Assembly (NCBI GenBank): GCA_050633245.1
Contig: JBOEGD010000014.1
Location: forward strand, 9,918-73,917
Source of the DNA: Calditrichia bacterium
GTDB taxonomy: Bacteria > Calditrichota > Calditrichia > RBG-13-44-9 > J075
Direction: 5' to 3'
Length of the DNA stretch: 64,000 bases
Shown one piece after another: positions 16,960 to 47,347 of the stretch (position 1 is the first letter of the stretch; each line of letters begins with the position of its first letter). A program made the translations under genes and the position numbers. Below the pieces are notes generated by a model that was not told the DNA's origin, did no database searches, and saw nothing but the letters and a program-made list of their open reading frames with translations.

Positions 16960-18225
16960 CTAAAGACGTAGTCTGGAGCTCGCAGAGATTGTGACTCCTT
17001 CCGCCGTCCCTGGCAGGAAACTACCGTGGTTTACTATTCCTAAGTCGATATAAAAAAAACTGAGATTCAGACCTACACCTACAGCTGTAGACATTTTGTT
17101 AATTCCGCCAAATGACATTCCGGCGCGTAGCGGCAAAAACGAAAGCCAGCTAAATTCACTGCCAAACGACATTTCAAAACCCTGTGAATAAAGATCACCG
17201 GCAAATCCCTTGGAAATACGTCCGGTAAACAACCAGCTTTTTGAGGCTTGAAAAGCCGTGCCATAATCCAAAACCAATGGAAGGCGCGTGCTGAAAGCAC
17301 TGGCTGCAAAAGTAGTGTCTTCTGTGACAACTAAACTGTCTTCAATGCCGTCGACAGTGAGAGTGAGGCTGTCCGAGCTGATGTCGTATAATCTTATTTC
17401 CGGCTGATTGTTCCAGGTGATACTTCCCAGAACATTATTTACCGAAAAGCTATGGGTCCAATTTCCACGACTTTGGGCAACCACACCAATATCCAACCCA
17501 AATCCGCTACCCCCGCGGGCAGTAAGCAATTCCGCGCGGCCATCTAACTCCATAACCGGATTTTCAAAGCTGGCATTTGCAAATGAGCCGCTTGAGTTTT
17601 CCACATTAGCATAACCCAGCCCGCCAAAGTATTTACCATTTGCACCGATTGAGAAATGCTTAAAGTGTTTATTGTTGTCCATATTTAACGGAATCGCCAA
17701 TCCAAAGTTGATTGCCATCCCGGCCCAGGCGCCGCCGTCAACATTCGAGAAGTCGTAGGTTTTACCGAGCTCCTCATTGCCGTAGAAGGCCAGCTCTGCA
17801 ACCTCCTTGGGGATAACGAAGTCGCCATCTGCCATTGCAGTAACCCCGATAGTAAACTTCGGTGCATAAATGGACATTAAGTTCACGCGCGCTCGCATTG
17901 CCCCTTCAATTCCTGTAGATGGAATTGAGGAAAGCAGCGTATTTTTGTCCGTATCAGTAAGGAAGTCACCCGTGGTGAAGTAATCGTCGTAGGTGCCTCT
18001 ATTGAAGCTGTTATTCGACGCATTGAGGCTGGCAGATACCAGATTAAGTTCAAAGTTATAAGACGTCGGCAAAGCAAAACTGGCAGGGTTCAATCCCACA
18101 GCCTGCAGGCCGCGTGATGCAGCAGGATTGCTAAAAGCCATACCGGCAGCACGGGCATCATTACTCTGCTGAGCAGCCAGCGAGGTAATAAGAAACAGTA
18201 CTAACATGATCAATTTCGTTTTCAT
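16960..18225 (-). CDS. Outer-membrane beta-barrel protein, DUF5723/TraF-like
   Basis: Signal peptide, ARAAGMA...LNPA N-terminal motif, GFGLDIG and LPLRAG motifs. Confidence 0.7.
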   Translation of the reverse strand: MKTKLIMLVLFLITSLAAQQSNDARAAGMAFSNPAASRGLQAVGLNPASFALPTSYNFELNLVSASLNASNNSFNRGTYDDYFTTGDFLTDTDKNTLLSSIPSTGIEGAMRARVNLMSIYAPKFTIGVTAMADGDFVIPKEVAELAFYGNEELGKTYDFSNVDGGAWAGMAINFGLAIPLNMDNNKHFKHFSIGANGKYFGGLGYANVENSSGSFANASFENPVMELDGRAELLTARGGSGFGLDIGVVAQSRGNWTHSFSVNNVLGSITWNNQPEIRLYDISSDSLTLTVDGIEDSLVVTEDTTFAASAFSTRLPLVLDYGTAFQASKSWLFTGRISKGFAGDLYSQGFEMSFGSEFSWLSFLPLRAGMSFGGINKMSTAVGVGLNLSFFYIDLGIVNHGSFLPGTAEGVTISASSRLRL

Positions 18226-18264
18226 AGTCCCAAATCCTTTTGGTTTATGACCAGACGTCCCTGT

Positions 18265-20397
18265 CTAGTCTTTCACATTGATTTCTACGCGTGCCATACC
18301 GGCGATTTTAAGAAAGTCCGATGCCCGAACTGCGACCGTGCCGTTCGTTTCCGGAATGCGTAGCTGATAACCAATGCGCAGCGGTGGATTCTGAAATAAC
18401 ATTGCTTGCTCTTTAGTGAGCTGTAGAAGCAGTTCGTTTTGCGCTGCTTCCGTAACGAAGCCCGTGACCGGGTCAATAGTTGCTTCAGTAATGGTAATTG
18501 TTTTTTCAAACTCCAGCTCCGGATTAATCGGGGCTTCATCATAAATACTTATTCGGGCCGGGTCGGCGCTAACGATTAGCCTAAACGAGGCGCCCAGAGG
18601 CGTATGATTAGTAAGTTGAACCGCCAGTTCAGCATTTTCAAAGTTTTCCTCAGTGGCCTCCTGCAAGTCATCATCAATATCTTCATCGAACAGTATTTCT
18701 TCATCGCCTTCCCAAATAGCTTCCTGAGAAATTTCGAACATCAATGGTGTTGCAAAACTATAACTGCCAGAGATGGCGGCATTTTGATTGATTTCAACAT
18801 CTCCCGACCCACGAACATTACCCGAGGTGCGTATATCTGTTGGTAAAATGTTAAGCAGGTTAGCGATATCTGCTCCATCGATGGTTATAACTGTGGTTCC
18901 AGGTGCTCCCGGACGACCAGGGTTTATACGACGATCAGTAATCGCTACAACAGCCGAGTCTGTAATTCCGCCACTTTCCTCACGGTGGTAGCCAACAACA
19001 AACAAGTCCAGAGCTAAGTTCTCAATATAAATCTCATTATTTAATACGAGCTGCAAACTCGCATTATTTAGCGAAATACCTTCTGGAAAATCGGAGTAGT
19101 CAACAAGGTCTTTTTCTTCGATCGGGTCGATATCAAATGTATCAGGAGACATAAATCCGGCAAATGAACGTAGATTAATATTGCGAACTGAGATATCCAC
19201 AACTACTCGGTCACTCGATCGAACATGCAGGTAACCCTGTGGTGCTTCGGTAGTTGCCGTGTAGAAGACAGATAAGCTATCTACATATTTGCCTGTGGGC
19301 TCAGCTATGCGCATATCGCTCAGATCCAATACCAACTGCTGCTGATCGCCCGGCTCGAGGTGCAAGTTATCGACAAAACTATTTCCCTGTGCATCCAGCA
19401 AATTGGGAATATTTACTTCAACATCCGTTTCCAAACCTGTTTCATTGGTAAAATCAAGATCGATAACCCCTGCATCCATCACCACTTCACGCAGCTGGTG
19501 CTCCGTTTCAATTGCAAAGGAGAGGGTATCCGAGAATTCCTGTGGATCGATTCTGGCAATTGCCTCGTCGGCTACCACATCGTCCAGCGTTGAAGAAAGT
19601 TCAACCCCTGTAGAATCCAACATTCCCGAGCGCAGACCAAAGGTGGTTGTTTGTGGAACGGGCAGCGTGTAGCTTACAGTGAGTGGAGCATAAATCCAGC
19701 CATCCGGTGTTGTTAGCGGACTCGTTTCATCCACCGTATCTCCCGGCGCGACAGTAGTTGGGACGCTTACACTAAGCACTTCTTGTCCGGTGCTATCGGT
19801 AATCGTAAACTGCATTCCGTTTGGCGTAGCAGCGTTTGGTCCCAGTGAAAAAGGTAAATTATTTATAAACACGACGCGCATAGATCCGCTAACAACGTGG
19901 ATGCCAATAAAATCATCCGATTCGATAACCGTCGGATCCGGAGTGAGAGTCACTTCGGGAATCGTTACCGGGATTTCCAGACCGTCCTGTGCAAGCGCGC
20001 GCAATTCCGGATAAATCTGCCCCAATGTTACAGGATCACTTTCAATTACCTCCAGGCTGCCAATGTCGAGCTGCCCGACTGCGAAGTATTGCGTCGTGTC
20101 AATTGCGCCAAGCGTAAAGTCTACAGCTGAGACTTCTGTGGTATCCAGGTCGCCATCAAAGTTGATGTAAATCAGTGAATCCGCACCTTGCGCAACAATT
20201 GTAGAATCGTTAATTATTTCTTCGCCAAGCTTAAAAGTCTCCTCAGCAAACGGAACGTTTACCGTAACAGCCCACTGTGGAAGCACCGGTTCCTCGAAGG
20301 AACAACTGCTAAGCAGAGCCAGAATGAGTGCGCAAAAGATGCTGTAGAAGCGCAGACTAATTGGCGGATGGTTGGTCGAGTTGAATAATGCTTTCAT
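18265..20397 (-). CDS. Large acidic beta-rich lipoprotein
   Basis: Lipobox LSSC followed by SFEEPVLPQW; repeated N-x-L/T-P beta motifs; 39 bp upstream of the barrel gene. Confidence 0.75.
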   Translation of the reverse strand: MKALFNSTNHPPISLRFYSIFCALILALLSSCSFEEPVLPQWAVTVNVPFAEETFKLGEEIINDSTIVAQGADSLIYINFDGDLDTTEVSAVDFTLGAIDTTQYFAVGQLDIGSLEVIESDPVTLGQIYPELRALAQDGLEIPVTIPEVTLTPDPTVIESDDFIGIHVVSGSMRVVFINNLPFSLGPNAATPNGMQFTITDSTGQEVLSVSVPTTVAPGDTVDETSPLTTPDGWIYAPLTVSYTLPVPQTTTFGLRSGMLDSTGVELSSTLDDVVADEAIARIDPQEFSDTLSFAIETEHQLREVVMDAGVIDLDFTNETGLETDVEVNIPNLLDAQGNSFVDNLHLEPGDQQQLVLDLSDMRIAEPTGKYVDSLSVFYTATTEAPQGYLHVRSSDRVVVDISVRNINLRSFAGFMSPDTFDIDPIEEKDLVDYSDFPEGISLNNASLQLVLNNEIYIENLALDLFVVGYHREESGGITDSAVVAITDRRINPGRPGAPGTTVITIDGADIANLLNILPTDIRTSGNVRGSGDVEINQNAAISGSYSFATPLMFEISQEAIWEGDEEILFDEDIDDDLQEATEENFENAELAVQLTNHTPLGASFRLIVSADPARISIYDEAPINPELEFEKTITITEATIDPVTGFVTEAAQNELLLQLTKEQAMLFQNPPLRIGYQLRIPETNGTVAVRASDFLKIAGMARVEINVKD

Positions 20398-20569
20398 AGT
20401 ATTCTTCCTTGAATTTTTATGATTCTTCCCTGAATCCTTAGTGCTGTTTCGATGTCAAAGACCAAACCGAAGAAACAGCACGCAACTCCTGACATTATCT
20501 ACGACACGGCATGTTAGGACGTTAAATAATTCTTTTAAGGTACTCTTTTTCTGTGGGGTAACACAGACA

Positions 20570-20604
20570 ACAAAAAGCCCCCTGCCAAGGTTCTGACAGG
20601 GGGC
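20570..20604 (-). terminator. Intrinsic terminator
   Basis: The minus strand reads GCCCCCTGTCAG...TTGGCAGGGGGC-TTTTTG. Confidence 0.75.
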
Positions 20605-20751
20605 AAAGGTTGATCAAAAGAATCACATTGGAGCATTCTCACAATGGAGCAGTTTTTGTGAGCTAGACGGTGTACTCTTTATTCTTAATTTCTAAGAAAA
20701 TTTTGAACACTTTCTACATTTCTTTCAAAAGAGAACGACTTCCAGCGTATC

Positions 20752-22083
20752 TTAATAGCGGAATTCATCGCCTTTATGAACCGCAATGTCATTCGGAAAA
20801 TAACGGTTATAAATCAAGTCACTAAACTCAAGCGCTTCCTTAGAATATGGATTTGTGCTGAGCTTATAGAAAAAGCTGTCTATTAAGTTCGACGCATCTT
20901 TCCATGTTTCCGTGCCGTTAACGATGCTTATAAATTCATCATACTGCTTTTCCTGCTTCTTAAATATTCGCTTGATAAAACGCTTACGCTGCTTAACAGT
21001 AATCATTGTATTCAGATCACCAAGGTCAGTGCCCTTCATTTTATTACCAACCACATTTGCAAGATGCTCAGCGGCGGTATATGACGGATCGCGCATTGTC
21101 ATGCCCTTCGTCTCGGCAATAACCGGCAGTTCCTCTTCTTCGAAGGAATCACTATCATCCTCTTCAATAACCTCTTCCGGTTCAACCTGTTGCGGGACTT
21201 GAATTTCTTCTACATGCACAGCCGGCTTATCCTGCTCGATATCTTCGAGCGTCTCAACCGGAATCGGTTTCGGCAGCGGTTGTTCAACAGGGGTAGGTGC
21301 AGGCGTTGGTGTACTAAGTCGTGGGCTCTGACCTGTTCGAAGTAGAGCTTCCAGCTCAGTGAGGGTCAGTTTATCAGCGCCATTATTGCCTTCACGTTCT
21401 ACAAGTTGAGCGAAGTCGCTTAGATTGCGATCACGCAAAATCATACTGAGCATCTGAACGCTCATCTGCCCATTTTCACCTTCACTGCCTTCGGAAATAA
21501 AATTTCCAATGGTTTTGATGGTCTGAAGAGCCGTCTCGACAGGGTTACGGGAAAAGACCTGCAGGTCGATGCCTTTAATCAATTCTTCAAACTGAACCTG
21601 CGAAATTTCGCGAAGGTACTTCAGGTTAAAGTATTCAGTAAGCGCATCTTTGTAATACTGAAATTTATCGAAGTATTTGAGCATGTCGTATACTTCAATC
21701 GTTGTAATAACCTTCTTATCCTTAAACAAAAATTGCGTCAGCGTTTGATGGGGACGGATAAGATAGTTTGCTTCCAGCTTAATAGATCTTTCCAACAGTC
21801 GATTAAAACGGTTCGGATGAAATGTCGCTGTTTGCTTAAGGACATCAAAGATCTTGTCGACCAACATCTGAATTTCAGGTGCTTCGTAGTTGAAACGATC
21901 GCTATCGCTAAATTTTTCGGACTCTTCACGAAGCCAGATTTCGACTTCCTGATCGAAAAAATGCTTTACTGAATCCGGAATGTTTCTGGTGAAGATATAA
22001 GCCAGAGGAATTTGATCCATTGAAGGCTTAACAACTTCTGTTCGGATCTTCTGAATAATATTTTCAATAATTTGTTCAAGCAT
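20752..22083 (-). CDS. Conserved hypothetical protein (helical N-domain, acidic Pro-rich linker, helical C-domain)
   Basis: 443-aa ORF with GGAG RBS; C-terminal RKRFIKRIF...W...RY/F domain. Confidence 0.75.
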   Translation of the reverse strand: MLEQIIENIIQKIRTEVVKPSMDQIPLAYIFTRNIPDSVKHFFDQEVEIWLREESEKFSDSDRFNYEAPEIQMLVDKIFDVLKQTATFHPNRFNRLLERSIKLEANYLIRPHQTLTQFLFKDKKVITTIEVYDMLKYFDKFQYYKDALTEYFNLKYLREISQVQFEELIKGIDLQVFSRNPVETALQTIKTIGNFISEGSEGENGQMSVQMLSMILRDRNLSDFAQLVEREGNNGADKLTLTELEALLRTGQSPRLSTPTPAPTPVEQPLPKPIPVETLEDIEQDKPAVHVEEIQVPQQVEPEEVIEEDDSDSFEEEELPVIAETKGMTMRDPSYTAAEHLANVVGNKMKGTDLGDLNTMITVKQRKRFIKRIFKKQEKQYDEFISIVNGTETWKDASNLIDSFFYKLSTNPYSKEALEFSDLIYNRYFPNDIAVHKGDEFRY

Positions 22084-22216
22084 ACTGCAAACTCCAAAAA
22101 TTTATCTGCATTTTCACATTCAGGTCATGCCGCTCCTGAACGTGCAAATATCGTTCCTCCTGAAGAACCTTAGCCACCTCTATCCATGAGTGCTTATTGT
22201 GAAATAGCGTCATTTC

Positions 22217-22232
22217 GCATAAAATGTGCCGA
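22217..22232 (-). promoter_or_regulatory. Sigma54-like -24/-12 element
   Basis: The minus strand reads TCGGCAC-ATTTT-ATGC (GG-N10-GC), about 135 bp upstream of 22083. Confidence 0.35.
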
Positions 22233-22380
22233 TTTTCGGGTATAGTTTAGCATAATACCGAAAGCGTGAAAATACATTCAGCACAAATTCTGAAATTTAA
22301 TTTTAAGAAAAGCCCGGCGATGAGATTGCTTGGAATGTGAGAAATGAGTAAAAATTTCTCACATTTTTATCAAAGGTAAA

Positions 22381-23112
22381 TCAATCCCGCTGATTCAACA
22401 TCAGTTGTTGATTTGCTTCCTGAACAGCAGTTTGAACACCAACTAACATGGCTCGCTTTACAATGCTCAGCCCCATGCAAATATCTTCAATACGGGGAAT
22501 ACGCGCAAGGTATGGCAGGTGCTGATAACCGATCGATCCGTAGCAGTTTACACCGATCCCCAACTTAGCTGCCCCAAGCACCGCAGAATGCAGCTTATCT
22601 AATGCAACAAGTTCATCATTCGAATCTGCAGCACGGGTAATTTCCGAACAGTCAAACTCTACAAAATCCACGTCGATTCGATTCAACTGTTTTAGCAGAT
22701 TTATTTCCGGCATTGCGAAAGCGGCAACGGAAATCTGACTGGCACGAAAATCGGACAGGACGCCCGGCAGGGTTTCCACCAGCGTATGAGTTGAAAGCGG
22801 TGATATAGCAATAGCACCGGATTGCGAGACATCGACAAACGTAACCATATCGGGCTTTATACCAAGCGCAATCTTTACCATTTGAGGGTCAATTGGAATG
22901 TGTAAATTGAGAAAGCTCTTATAAACTTTTCGCAGCGTACGAATATCGCTTTCCTTCAAACCACGGTCAGAATCCGCCAGCGTTACGGATATCCCGCTTG
23001 CGCCGGCAACTTCGGCCAAAATAGCATATTGAACCGGATCAAAGTCTGTATCTTTTAATACGTAGCGGAGAGTTGCAACATCATCCACAGAAATCGTTAA
23101 TCGCTTTACCAA
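22381..23112 (-). CDS. PdxJ (PNP synthase)-fold protein with degenerate active site
   Basis: DDVATLR...DPVQ.A..AE.AGA.GI.V, LNL and KP segments align with PdxJ over the full length, but the catalytic His/Arg/Glu residues are replaced. TTG start with AGGAG RBS. Confidence 0.8.
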   Translation of the reverse strand: MVKRLTISVDDVATLRYVLKDTDFDPVQYAILAEVAGASGISVTLADSDRGLKESDIRTLRKVYKSFLNLHIPIDPQMVKIALGIKPDMVTFVDVSQSGAIAISPLSTHTLVETLPGVLSDFRASQISVAAFAMPEINLLKQLNRIDVDFVEFDCSEITRAADSNDELVALDKLHSAVLGAAKLGIGVNCYGSIGYQHLPYLARIPRIEDICMGLSIVKRAMLVGVQTAVQEANQQLMLNQRD

Positions 23113-23134
23113 ATCGCTTCTCCTGATATCATCA

Positions 23135-23671
23135 TTAAATCACTTTGTCTTCCCAACGAGCAATATACCACCGCTCATCATCCCGCAGTACGTATTGGAA
23201 AACCACTTCGCCATTAAAAACAGGATCGGCTCCGCCTCCATCGAGGGTCAGCGTGAATGTAAGAGTTTCCTGAACACGGGTTGCTTGCCCTTCATCATTG
23301 CGTTGAAGCGTATCGGAACGTATAGGCTCGTTGAAGGTAATATCCAGCGTGTTAAAAAAACGGAACATTCGTCCCACGACTCTTAATTCCTGATCGCGTC
23401 CCCAATTGATCGGCTCCGGGGGAGACACATTAAAATTGGTACTCACAAAAATAAACGTTGAATCCAGCAGCTCACTATAAACCAATGAATCTTTAAAGGA
23501 ATAGGCAAATGCAAAATTGAGTAATACCTCACCCGGGGATTTCTGTTCGGTAAGCAAACTATTTTGCCCGGCATTTTCATCGGCTAGCGCAGGTGCAAAT
23601 GGGTTTGCACAGCGAATGACAATAAGAGCCGTAAGCAGCAAACCGATAAAGAGAAAAGAATGCTTTTGCAT
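23135..23671 (-). CDS. Hypothetical lipoprotein (possible NTF2-like fold)
   Basis: Signal peptide followed by CANPFAP; F.F, W.R..E and W.I..W.D motifs shared with the upstream neighbour. Confidence 0.75.
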   Translation of the reverse strand: MQKHSFLFIGLLLTALIVIRCANPFAPALADENAGQNSLLTEQKSPGEVLLNFAFAYSFKDSLVYSELLDSTFIFVSTNFNVSPPEPINWGRDQELRVVGRMFRFFNTLDITFNEPIRSDTLQRNDEGQATRVQETLTFTLTLDGGGADPVFNGEVVFQYVLRDDERWYIARWEDKVI

Positions 23672-23680
23672 ATCAAGTAC

Positions 23681-24292
23681 TCAACGATACTTTGCGCGCA
23701 GCGTAGACCAGGTGCTGTCATTACCGCTAGTGGTTTCCAAATCCTGCCAACTCCGCACAAACCAATTTTCCTGGCTGGATTTTACGACGCGCAAAATAAC
23801 GCGCCCCTGATAGCGCTCTACGCGCTGACCGGTGCGCAGTCCGAGTAGAATCTCGTATTGAAAGCGCACCTCTTCCTCATCCTGAGTTATTGGCGTAAAA
23901 ACCGGATCCCCATCTTCAGGCAGATTTAAAACCGCACTTTCAACTTGCTCATCCTGAACCAACTGCTGAAAGTAAGCAATTTCGCGCATCCGATCCCAAT
24001 TTGAAAGTTCAGAAGCATCGCTACCCGCCCCGAGAAAAGTAAATAAGCTATCGAAACATTGTTCATAAGTTGAGGACAACTGTACATCAAAAGCGCTGCG
24101 AATTTTTGCTATCAACTGTTCCGGATCTGACTGAGACGTCACCAGATTGTCTCCGGAAGTCGGGGGTTCCGGCATTCGGGTGGCAAATGGGTTGGTACAG
24201 CTACCAAGAAAAATAAGTAAGATGACACAATGTATTCCGGGCGATTTTACGCTCATAAATTCAATGTAATTCGTTATTAATTGCTTTTCCAT
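23681..24292 (-). CDS. Hypothetical lipoprotein, paralog of 23135-23671
   Basis: Lipobox LGSC-TNPFA, WDRMRE and WFVRSWQD. The start may be the ATG at 24256. Confidence 0.75.
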   Translation of the reverse strand: MEKQLITNYIEFMSVKSPGIHCVILLIFLGSCTNPFATRMPEPPTSGDNLVTSQSDPEQLIAKIRSAFDVQLSSTYEQCFDSLFTFLGAGSDASELSNWDRMREIAYFQQLVQDEQVESAVLNLPEDGDPVFTPITQDEEEVRFQYEILLGLRTGQRVERYQGRVILRVVKSSQENWFVRSWQDLETTSGNDSTWSTLRAKYR

Positions 24293-24327
24293 AAAAAATT
24301 CGGCTTTTTATCGGAAAGAAAGAATAA

Positions 24328-26394
<2,067 letters not shown>

Positions 26395-33385: not shown

Positions 33386-33644
33386 TGAATGCTGATTGAT
33401 GAGGTATGACTCAGAATTTTAATTCATGAATCATCAATCATCAATCTCTAACAGTATCCTTTTTTATACTACCTGTCTACAAAAACATACACCACTCTTG
33501 CTTCCTCGCTAAATTCCACACGCCATAATTCATTTATAAATAATAGTTTATCAGCCACTAATTATCTCGGTACGGAATTTGTTCTTATATTCGAGGATTT
33601 CTACTGCTTTCTGCTTAGATTTTGCAGATATGTAAGGAGAGATC

Positions 33645-34370
33645 ATGAATACTGAACAAAGCGGATGCCTTTACATCGTAAGTACACCTATTGGCAATCT
33701 GGAAGACATCACCTATCGGGCCGTGCGAATCCTGTCTGAGGTCGATGTCATTTGTGCCGAGGATACCCGCGTAACAGGGAAGCTGTTAAAGCATTATGAG
33801 ATTGAAAATCGCATGTTAAGCTACTATGCCCACAATGCCAAAGGTCGCATTCCGCAAGTATTGGAAATGCTTCACAATGGTCAAAATATCGCAGTCGTAT
33901 CTGATGCCGGAACGCCAGGAATCTCTGATCCTTCAGAGCGGTTGGTTTCTGCCGCCGCTGCTGAGGGCATCCGTATTATTCCCATTCCCGGAGCCTGTGC
34001 CGCCATTACCGCACTGGTTGTTTCCGGGCTTCCAACAGATCGTTTCGTCTTTGAAGGCTTTCTACCAAAGAAAAAAGGACGTCAAACCCGCTTCAGATTT
34101 ATAGCCGAAGAAGAGCGCACTATCGTGGTTTACGAGTCCCCACACCGCATCCAAAAAACTTTGGAAGATATTGTAAAGCATATGGGGAATCGCTATATTG
34201 TTGTCCTGCGTGAATTGACCAAGCGGTATGAGGAAATCATCCGTGGAAGCGCTGTAGATCTGGTACAGAATCTGTCTTCACGTAAACTAAAAGGAGAGAT
34301 TGTTCTATTAGTTGCAGGAAATAAATTTGATACTACAGACCCAATGATGAAAGAGTTACCACATGGATAA
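33645..34370 (+). CDS. rsmI: 16S rRNA (cytidine1402-2'-O)-methyltransferase
   Basis: TPIGNLEDIT.RA, AEDTR, SDAGTP.ISDP, YESPHR and RELTK motifs. Confidence 0.96.
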   Translation: MNTEQSGCLYIVSTPIGNLEDITYRAVRILSEVDVICAEDTRVTGKLLKHYEIENRMLSYYAHNAKGRIPQVLEMLHNGQNIAVVSDAGTPGISDPSERLVSAAAAEGIRIIPIPGACAAITALVVSGLPTDRFVFEGFLPKKKGRQTRFRFIAEEERTIVVYESPHRIQKTLEDIVKHMGNRYIVVLRELTKRYEEIIRGSAVDLVQNLSSRKLKGEIVLLVAGNKFDTTDPMMKELPHG

Positions 34371-46285: not shown

Positions 46286-47347
46286 CTACAAGAACTCCAG
46301 ATATTGCCCCTCGTTTTCCGGTAGCACCTCACCAATAATAGCCGAAGCAGGATTTCCTGCAGCAACTAATTGCTCAACTGCCTGTGCAGCTTCATCAGCT
46401 GGCAAAGCAACTAATAGTCCACCGCTGGTTTGTGGATCATATACGATTTCCTGATGCCAGGCCGGTAGCTCGCGCCCAAAACGAAGGTAGCTTTTCACCA
46501 TCTCCTCATTGAAACGATTTACTCCGGTATTCATGCCTTTTTCATACATCGCAAGTGCAGAATCCATTGTGGGAAGCGCATTCAAATCGATGGATAGCAT
46601 GGCATTCGAACCACGCGCCATTTCCAAACCATGCCCGGCTAAACCAAAGCCGGTAACATCGGTAGCAGCATGCACGTGAAACGATTGCAATACTTGGGCT
46701 GCGGCGCGGTTCAACAGCGTAACACTGGCAAGACAGGCCTTCATCGCTTCATCGCTAACCCAATTTTTCAGGTTCGCATTAAATAAAACTCCACTACCAA
46801 TGGCCTTGGTTAAAATTAACGCGTCGCCCGGTTTTGCCCCGGTATTTCGCCAGATTTTTTGCGGATGCACAATGCCATTCACCGACAGTCCAAACTTCGG
46901 CTCTTCGTCTTCGGTAGTATGTCCACCTGCCAAAACGGCTCCGGCTTCGGTTATCTTACTTAATGCGCCTTCGACAATACCGAGCAGTATTTCCGGCCCT
47001 AGTCGGGTTGACGGAAAGCCAATAAGATTCAGCGCGCTGATCGGTTTACCACCCATCGCGTAGACGTCACTGATTGCATTCGCAGCGCCAATCTGCCCAA
47101 AGAGGTACGGATCATCTACCGGCGGCGTAATAAAGTCTGCAGTGGTGACAATAGCCGTTTCATCGTCGATGCGATAAACACCCGCGTCATCACTGGTTTC
47201 ATATCCAACCAGCAGATTCTCATCCTGCTTTTTCGGCAACTTGGCCAATAATTCTCCCAGCCCGACCGGACTGATTTTAGCCGCTCAACCGCAGGTTTTT
47301 GCGAGACTTGTAAGAGTATGTTTTCGACGCAGGTTTAGTATTGACAC
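46286..47347 (-). CDS. selD: Selenide, water dikinase; selenoprotein (Sec21)
   Basis: GTG at 47347 gives MSILNLRRKHTLTSLAKTCG-U(TGA 47287-47285)-AAKISP in frame with DDAGVY, DFITP, NAISDVYAMGG, GGHT, TDVTGFGL.GH and DPQTSGGLL. Confidence 0.95.
47258..47273 (-). promoter_or_regulatory. Bacterial SECIS element
   Basis: CAGUCC-GGUC-GGGCUG hairpin beginning 11 nt downstream of the in-frame UGA. Confidence 0.8.

Follow-up and report, generated by a model that had tools for sequence, protein, structure and literature searches.

The closest described relatives of the gene considered here are the pyridoxine 5′-phosphate (PNP) synthases (EC 2.6.99.2) of the PdxJ family (PF03740), exemplified by structures 1HO1 and 1M5W. 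In Escherichia coli PdxJ, we take Glu72, His45 and His193 to be the catalytic acid/base residues, and the two substrate phosphates are presumably held by Arg20 (from the neighboring subunit), Arg47, His52, Thr102, Thr103 and His216. A PdxJ-like gene of a Calditrichia bacterium (assembly GCA_050633245.1, contig JBOEGD010000014.1) encodes a protein that lacks every one of these residues. The gene lies in a stretch of 64,000 nucleotides of this contig (positions 9,918 to 73,917), hereafter called the window, and an earlier, sequence-only reading of the window had described its product as a PdxJ-fold pseudoenzyme. The window protein shares with PdxJ its family, its length, a predicted barrel with extra helices, residues D11, E153, N70, N190 and G215 and, in most of its orthologues, G194. 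It differs from PdxJ in that pyridoxal 5′-phosphate (PLP) would be made by PdxS/PdxT, PdxA is missing from the genome, and a lipoprotein operon takes the place of a vitamin B6 context.

The pdxJ gene is treated as the signature of the PLP pathway that depends on 1-deoxy-D-xylulose 5-phosphate (DXP), and is called well annotated, in PMC9997740. That study places Caldithrix abyssi among ten bacteria that apparently have both pathways, the DXP-dependent one being possibly incomplete, and its passages on such bacteria do not discuss the PdxJ active site (PMC9997740). The phylum has at least one cultured member, and C. abyssi is described as able to make PLP (PMC5317091). Precedent exists for an enzyme family of the DXP-dependent pathway having members in another role, as outlined for PdxA and PdxA2 (PMC9997740). 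PdxA2 keeps its catalytic machinery and its substrate is known, whereas in the window protein the machinery is replaced. Our search of the literature for PdxJ-like, PdxJ-homolog and PdxJ-paralog proteins brought up no account of a family of this kind, in agreement with the sequence-only reading, which knew of none.

We consider it highly probable that the window protein is not a PNP synthase and is nevertheless a selected, functional protein. The active-site replacement seen earlier in a single sequence is real, and it is more general than that sequence could reveal.

A PdxJ homolog without the PNP synthase active site

The window protein belongs to the PdxJ family. PF03740 is its sole Pfam match (E = 3e-40; 138.2 bits against a gathering cut-off of 24.5), with residues 4-235 aligned to positions 1-232 of the 234-position profile. 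All eight relatives of solved structure recovered with HMMER are PNP synthases, and E. coli PdxJ (1ho1/1m5w) is matched with an E value of about 3e-22. However, the six NCBIfam equivalog models for PNP synthase all place the protein under their cut-offs: it scores 108.4 bits on TIGR00559, where 192.75 are needed, and 132.7, 117.1, 112.7, 95.8 and 75.5 bits on the models that require 190, 207, 347, 331 and 222, respectively. Three further orthologues from the phylum score 120-160 bits on the NCBIfam PNP synthase models.

Two alignments served to compare residues: that of HMMER to the E. coli PdxJ structures (1ho1/1m5w), and one made with MAFFT that includes the K-12 gene of E. coli. Sixteen canonical positions were scored (E. 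coli numbering: N9, D11, H12, R20, H45, R47, H52, E72, T102, T103, E153, H155, H193, G194, G215 and H216), and the window protein keeps three of them: D11, E153 and G215. The acid/base positions E72, H45 and H193 are occupied by His, Thr and Gly. Likewise, the phosphate-holding side chains Arg20, Arg47, His52, Thr102, Thr103 and His216 have become Leu, Ala, Gly, Ile, Ala and Leu, and H12 and H155 are replaced as well. At the phosphate sites, the backbone-donating Gly215 alone is kept in the window protein, and Gly194 persists in 32 of the 50 orthologues described below. The substitutions listed in the sequence-only reading (N9S, H12D, R20L, H45T, R47A, H52G, E72H, EIHTG to EFDCS, loss of H193, which aligns to Gly, and H216L) are all reproduced by both alignments. 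Its statement that nearly all catalytic residues are replaced stands for 13 of the 16 positions and needs amending for Asp11, Glu153 and the glycine of the β8 loop, which are retained.

Canonical positions are invariant in ordinary PdxJ, and thus the pattern of losses in the window protein is not a chance one. Among 140 full-length cluster representatives (sampled as described below), 27 carry all 16 canonical letters, 48 carry at least 13, and Glu72, His45 and His193 occur together in 45. This triad is also present in all five PdxJ loci from Nitrospira, Nitrospirota and Omnitrophota, which have 14-16 of the sites, the locus with 14 being cut at a contig end.

Despite these losses, the protein is confidently predicted to form a PdxJ-type (β/α)8 barrel. 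The AlphaFold2 model, built from a 37-sequence alignment, has a mean predicted local distance difference test score (pLDDT) of 93.9 and a predicted template modeling (TM) score of 0.91. The top Foldseek matches to this predicted structure are all PdxJ (TM 0.90-0.93, 24-27% identity), and PdxJ fills the 12 best entries shown (TM 0.84-0.93).

Retention and purifying selection across the phylum

The phylum was sampled through 86 species genomes, 53 of them of good quality, in eight families designated f1 (the family of the window) to f8. A PdxJ-like match is present in 81 of the 86 genomes and in all 53 of good quality, almost always in single copy; the five genomes without one are 52-87% complete. 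Orthologues extracted from 50 genomes, covering all eight families, are non-canonical without exception, with between 1 and 7 of the 16 sites left. Residues kept include D11 (49 orthologues), G215 (46), E153 (45), G194 (32) and R47 (18). H12, R20, H52, E72, T102, H193 and H216 are missing from all 50, and H45 is gone from 48.

A word-indexed search likewise delimits the close family. It returned 31 cluster representatives at 47-100% identity, followed by a gap, with ordinary PdxJ at 36% or less. The public organism names of these close relatives are Calditrichaeota or Calditrichia, and the aligned close family carries the new residues in common with the window protein.

The sequence-only reading took the gene to be repurposed rather than decaying, citing a full-length ORF with a ribosome binding site. 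Indeed, the frame of 243 codons is intact, and AGGAG stands 7 nucleotides ahead of the TTG start (plus-strand ctcct, 23120-23124). The ratio of nonsynonymous to synonymous substitution rates (dN/dS, Nei-Gojobori) is 0.039-0.103 for the PdxJ-like gene in six pairs with unsaturated dS, and 0.065-0.116 for the neighboring lipoprotein gene. That reading would have been contradicted by a lack of conserved orthologues and by neutral evolution; the gene is retained phylum-wide, and neutrality is contradicted by these ratios. A relic of pdxJ, drifting neutrally after PdxS and PdxT took over PLP synthesis, would account for the lost catalytic residues and for the fast divergence across the phylum. Against such a relic stand open frames without stops in all but three of the phylum matches listed, presence in every good-quality genome, the low dN/dS and the confident model, and we give this explanation virtually no credence. 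Instead, the data show a pdxJ orthologue that the phylum has inherited vertically. It has lost the PNP synthase active site, PLP being supplied by PdxS/PdxT, while its product remains a folded barrel under strong purifying selection, encoded last in a conserved trio with two genes for NTF2-like lipoproteins.

Several observations concern individual copies of the gene. One f8 genome (G040, contig C18) has two PdxJ-like matches with identical scores, at 33605-34294 on the plus strand and 46348-47037 on the minus strand, 12 kb apart, which point to an inverted duplication of recent date or else to an artefact of the assembly. A far more divergent copy on a long branch, with the signature DTPFISGMNDIDGNGK and with Glu153 changed to Ile, is found in an f2 locus (L053, genome G053) and in cluster P0043, in a lineage inside the order of the window; at the f2 locus the two lipoprotein genes still lie upstream. 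In sequencing run X1, a single contig spans window positions 20500-24400 with 144 differences and two single-base gaps, both outside the PdxJ-like ORF, and it represents a strain about 96% identical with the same gene arrangement. Small shares of the same region occur in runs whose labels name metagenomes of coral, marine or plastisphere origin. No reads came from three poly(A) RNA runs that share a species label with runs that carry the stretch, a result that does not test expression.

Vitamin B6 synthesis in genomes that carry the gene

The genome that contains the window (6.35 Mb, 97% complete) has adjacent genes for PdxS and PdxT, and the window gene is its only PdxJ-family match. Both facts bear on a proposal of the sequence-only reading, which had suggested a search for a second pdxJ or for pdxST and had offered a non-catalytic subunit or regulator of the PdxJ octamer as one role for the protein. 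The PdxJ fold and length suit such a subunit. However, with no canonical PdxJ in the genome the idea fails, and the wider phylum offers no better setting for it, since its matches are mostly single and all 50 orthologues are non-canonical. We therefore regard participation in a canonical PdxJ octamer as exceedingly improbable.

A second alternative is that the protein still makes PNP with different residues, at least in families that have PdxA and keep Arg47. PdxA-family genes above the TIGR00557 cut-off occur in the single f4 genome, in 21 of 26 f5 genomes, in both f7 genomes and in all 10 f8 genomes, and the PdxJ-like proteins of the PdxA-bearing families keep Arg47 together with D11 and E153. 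PdxH is encoded in the genome of the window (264 bits against a cut-off of 180), and some proteins of this type are labelled PNP synthase in public records. These points are countered by others. Glu72 is replaced by Arg or His, and the further catalytic and phosphate-site losses counted above extend to every family. The genome of the window has no PF04166 match, and hence no PdxA to supply the aminoketone partner; in the rest of its order PdxA-family genes appear in one of 36 genomes (f1, 1 of 15; f2, 0 of 4; f3, 0 of 17). Family f6 has the same type of PdxJ-like protein and no PdxA in any of 10 genomes. Moreover, PdxS is present in 82 of the 86 genomes, and PdxH serves salvage too. In families f4 to f8, Glu72 has become Arg and five His are gone, and we judge continued PNP synthesis by altered residues to be very unlikely.

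TIGR00557 does not separate catabolic PdxA2-type genes. The sole f1 PdxA-family gene (L068:3786-6329, genome G055) adjoins a gene resembling D-threonate kinase (DUF1537-type), occurs twice in the assembly with identical scores, and probably belongs to a catabolic PdxA2-type cluster; this kinase-linked copy, at 359.6 bits, nevertheless scores highest of the four tested on the model. The other PdxA-family genes inspected, in loci from f5 (L064), f8 (L066) and f7 (L067), are stand-alone and above the TIGR00557 cut-off, in genomes where the sole PdxJ-family protein is non-canonical and PdxS is present. Nitrospirota served as a control: PdxJ was matched at 240-346 bits in 120 of 121 genomes, and low-scoring second copies were not seen.

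The remodeled pocket and its possible functions

Residues that both halves of the phylum have conserved (window numbering) comprise D10, R16, D25-P26, E34, G37, D56, N69 and a His or Arg at 71 in the first part of the barrel; P87-D88-M89-x-T91-F92-V93, N125, I127, P135 and K141 in the middle; and D149-(Y/F)-V-E152, D163, K183-L-G185-x-G187-V-N189, G192, E209-D210, G214 and G225 toward the end. Within the order of the window, an Asp or Glu at 11, T44, G51 and D154 are also well kept. Barrel topology and the strands of the model place D10/D11, T44, H71, E152/D154, N189/G192 and G214 at the C-terminal ends of the strands, which form the usual active face of such a barrel. To judge from the alignments, what survives of the PdxJ pocket is its floor together with the glycine-rich β7 and β8 loops, while the walls of His, Arg and Thr and the lid are replaced, so that the net character of the site turns from basic to acidic. 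Such a putative smaller site fits a cation-bridged or monophosphate ligand.

Beyond PdxJ itself, the next folds matched by Foldseek are ribulose-phosphate epimerase (RPE), KGPDC, MfnB and HPS, at TM 0.62-0.68. At 12-16% identity and with no sequence family match, these ribulose-phosphate-binding barrels resemble the window protein in fold class only. In several of these barrels acidic residues work together with a metal, and the loops after β7 and β8 serve for phosphate; glycine-rich loops at these two strands grip phosphate throughout this barrel class. An acidic site combined with β7/β8 phosphate loops is the pattern that we infer for the window protein.

We hypothesize that the top of the pocket is still used in a reduced form, built from Asp10 and Glu152 (E. 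coli D11 and E153), Asn69, Asn189 and the glycine-rich loops. Asp/Glu11, Asp154 and His/Arg71 would have been gained in place of His12, His155 and Glu72, with all the Arg, His and Thr phosphate holders lost. The protein would then not condense DXP with aminoacetone phosphate. A different small ligand would be bound, and probably transformed, at the acidic site, perhaps with dependence on a divalent cation or with a monophosphate as anchor. We place the chance of a new catalytic activity close to even, though on the lower side, and the complete explanation that includes this activity deserves a similarly guarded, not quite even, degree of belief.

Two other surfaces were considered as candidate sites and dropped. 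The acidic residues D88, E209 and D210 at the barrel bottom are also present in canonical sequences such as P0032, leaving only D149 specific. Conserved cysteines (in EFDC, VNC and DIC) that might have formed a metal site are occupied by Ala, Val, Ile or Thr in sister families.

Several observations weigh against a new enzyme of the kind we propose. The putative metal or phosphate site derives from residue types and barrel topology. Taken together, the 16 former catalytic positions do not exceed the remaining ones in conservation: mean entropies are 1.22 versus 1.37 in the order of the window (permutation P = 0.25) and 1.11 versus 1.23 in the other families (P = 0.27), and positions 9, 47, 102, 103 and 216 vary greatly. 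The two halves of the phylum have different pocket residues at position 12 (Asp/Glu versus Pro), 45 (Thr versus Tyr), 47 (variable versus Arg) and 52 (Gly versus Thr), which argues against one conserved chemistry; the less altered proteins of families f4 to f8 have Asp/Asn9, Pro12, Tyr45, Arg47, Thr52 and Arg72. The PdxJ-like protein also diverges faster than its neighbors, since identities between the window and other families are 28-33% for it, 34-48% for the adjacent 178-residue lipoprotein and 49-54% for LigA. Finally, the operon link may be regulatory, or merely inherited gene order, rather than a sign of shared function.

Much of this evidence would suit a non-catalytic protein whose barrel provides a scaffold, senses an allosteric ligand or partners another protein, with any retained pocket residues serving only stability or binding. 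Besides the unexceptional conservation of the ex-catalytic positions and the differences in the pocket between orders, the lid loop varies freely, as do positions 9, 47 and 216, and the best-conserved stretches are the core strands PDMVTFV, DYVEFD and KLGxGVN. Other data do not favor this alternative. The polar set at the barrel top (D10, D/E11, T44, H/R71, E152, D154 and N189) is well conserved in the order of the window, and dN/dS is as low as in ordinary enzymes. A canonical PdxJ to regulate was seen neither in the genome of the window nor in the 50 phylum genomes. We consider a non-catalytic binding or scaffold role a serious contender, only slightly less likely than a new activity and somewhat below one half. 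In the sense of lost catalytic residues, purifying selection and a retained fold, the protein is a pseudoenzyme; as to the absence of any activity, the conservation signals give a mixed indication.

Non-canonical PdxJ-like proteins beyond the phylum

When 1.84 billion cluster representatives were searched exhaustively with HMMER, 1323 matched at E ≤ 0.001, only six of them at ≤ 1e-30. The best 150 of the 1323 were taken, a sample biased toward the query, and 140 of these are full length. Their distribution over the canonical sites is uneven: 85 have nine or fewer of the 16, seven have 10-12 and 48 have at least 13. In a FastTree phylogeny, 77 of the 84 non-canonical representatives placed share a clade of 129 rows (local support 97) with the complete set of 50 phylum sequences, a single canonical row and a single intermediate one. 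Within it, a subclade of 57 rows (support 97) consists of the phylum sequences and seven representatives.

The large clade may be an old paralogous family, or it may be an artefact of long-branch attraction. The artefact is possible because P0058, a non-canonical representative, is 38-47% identical to the canonical PdxJ of Nitrospira, Nitrospirota and Omnitrophota. A contig search with P0058 returned only canonical PdxJ from those three groups, and its own lineage was not found among 121 Nitrospirota genomes.

Named members of this wider set include a metagenome-assembled genome (MAG) of candidate division Zixibacteria and a 'Calditrichaeota' MAG, whose proteins are both labelled pyridoxine 5′-phosphate synthase; the ESM Atlas offered generic PdxJ-family clusters only. 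Metagenomic PdxJ-like proteins (clusters P0049, P0052, P0053, P0061 and P0073, one from Zixibacteria) resemble the window protein in the motifs PDMVT(L/F)V and DYVE and often in Arg72 and Gly193. They differ from it in sequence, at 26-31% identity, and in that His216 is retained by most of them and Arg47 or His45 by many. By these sequence features, the window protein belongs to a broad and mostly unnamed set of non-canonical PdxJ-like proteins.

Genomic neighborhood

The trio occupies one strand in the order 203-residue lipoprotein, 178-residue lipoprotein, PdxJ-like protein (Table 1). In 47 of the 50 loci, a homolog of the 178-residue lipoprotein is encoded upstream in the same orientation, and two of the three misses are contig ends or short flanks. 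The ligA gene was seen in 16 of 19 loci fetched with 4-kb flanks. Downstream, families f4 to f8 have instead a gene for a secreted GH2-like protein of about 830 residues, followed by smc.

Table 1. Features of the PdxJ-like locus, in window coordinates
Feature	Position	Strand	Description
Terminator-like hairpin, strong	20577..20604	-	12 pairs, 8 of them G-C, with T-run; behind the 443-residue protein gene
443-residue protein	20752..22083	-	297 nucleotides downstream of the PdxJ-like gene; a neighbor only within family f1
PdxJ-like ORF	22381..23112	-	243 residues; TTG start; uninterrupted; predicted PdxJ-type (β/α)8 barrel
Spacer	23113..23134	-	22 nucleotides from the stop of the upstream lipoprotein gene to the PdxJ-like TTG; 14-22 nucleotides in the loci compared
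178-residue lipoprotein-like protein	23135..23671	-	Signal peptide, Cys, invariant NPFAP; predicted NTF2-like cone; conserved upstream neighbor
203-residue lipoprotein-like protein	23681..24292	-	Distant paralogue of the 178-residue protein (21-27% identity); first gene of the conserved trio
ligA, NAD-dependent DNA ligase	24367..26394	+	Divergent; marks the conserved position of the trio

Pfam has no family for either lipoprotein. In both (23135-24292), Cys-x-NPF(A/S)(P/T) follows the signal peptide and the predicted fold is NTF2-like, and a profile search recovered 665 relatives, with organism names that all belong to this phylum among the 120 matches listed. The model of the 178-residue protein (pLDDT 85.3) is an NTF2-like cone whose best matches are PhzA/B, SnoaL-like and ketosteroid-isomerase-like proteins. 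A direct complex of the PdxJ-like protein with the lipoproteins is unlikely, because it has no signal peptide and they are exported.

Other features of the region were noted in passing. The 443-residue protein has an acidic, proline-rich middle and is 56-83% identical across 13 loci of the family of the window. A terminator scan found none between its gene and the PdxJ-like gene. In the 297-nucleotide gap, positions 22336-22372 hold a 10-bp A/T-rich inverted repeat (tgtgagaaat ... atttctcaca) with a T-run on the plus strand; it has too few G-C pairs to be listed by the scan, and no plus-strand gene lies upstream of it. Rfam gave only sub-threshold matches for window positions 20000-25000. One of these, a match resembling an S-adenosylmethionine riboswitch at 21990-22066 on the plus strand (24.9 bits against a gathering threshold of 44.4; E = 0.027), is antisense inside the 443-codon ORF and probably due to chance. 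Promoter-like sites are rarer than in shuffled sequence (5 versus 7.9). Farther along, 16960-20397 on the minus strand encodes a 710-residue lipoprotein-like protein and a DUF5723 outer-membrane-type protein (70.6 bits), beyond which are genes for an alpha-amylase-family protein, ComEC and a 1497-residue histidine kinase with multiple PAS domains.

Implications

An extension of our hypothesis reaches past the phylum. A large, unrecognized clade derived from PdxJ, spread over this phylum, Zixibacteria and many uncultured lineages, might have given up the two-phosphate His/Arg pocket in favor of an acidic site whose chemistry is new; in this phylum the protein would serve, together with the two NTF2-like lipoproteins of its operon, a lineage-specific pathway linked to the envelope. 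We hold this broader proposal to be rather doubtful.

Our data suggest that calls of the DXP-dependent pathway made from pdxJ, as for C. abyssi, can rest on a PdxJ-like protein unable to act as a PNP synthase. In public data, many similar proteins are named PNP synthase.

For the phylum itself, the gene offers a clean natural case of an enzyme of an essential pathway that outlives the pathway: once PdxS and PdxT supplied PLP, pdxJ was remodeled, and every good-quality genome has kept it. Because the phylum has a cultured member, this is a tractable system for the reuse of the barrel of a former enzyme.

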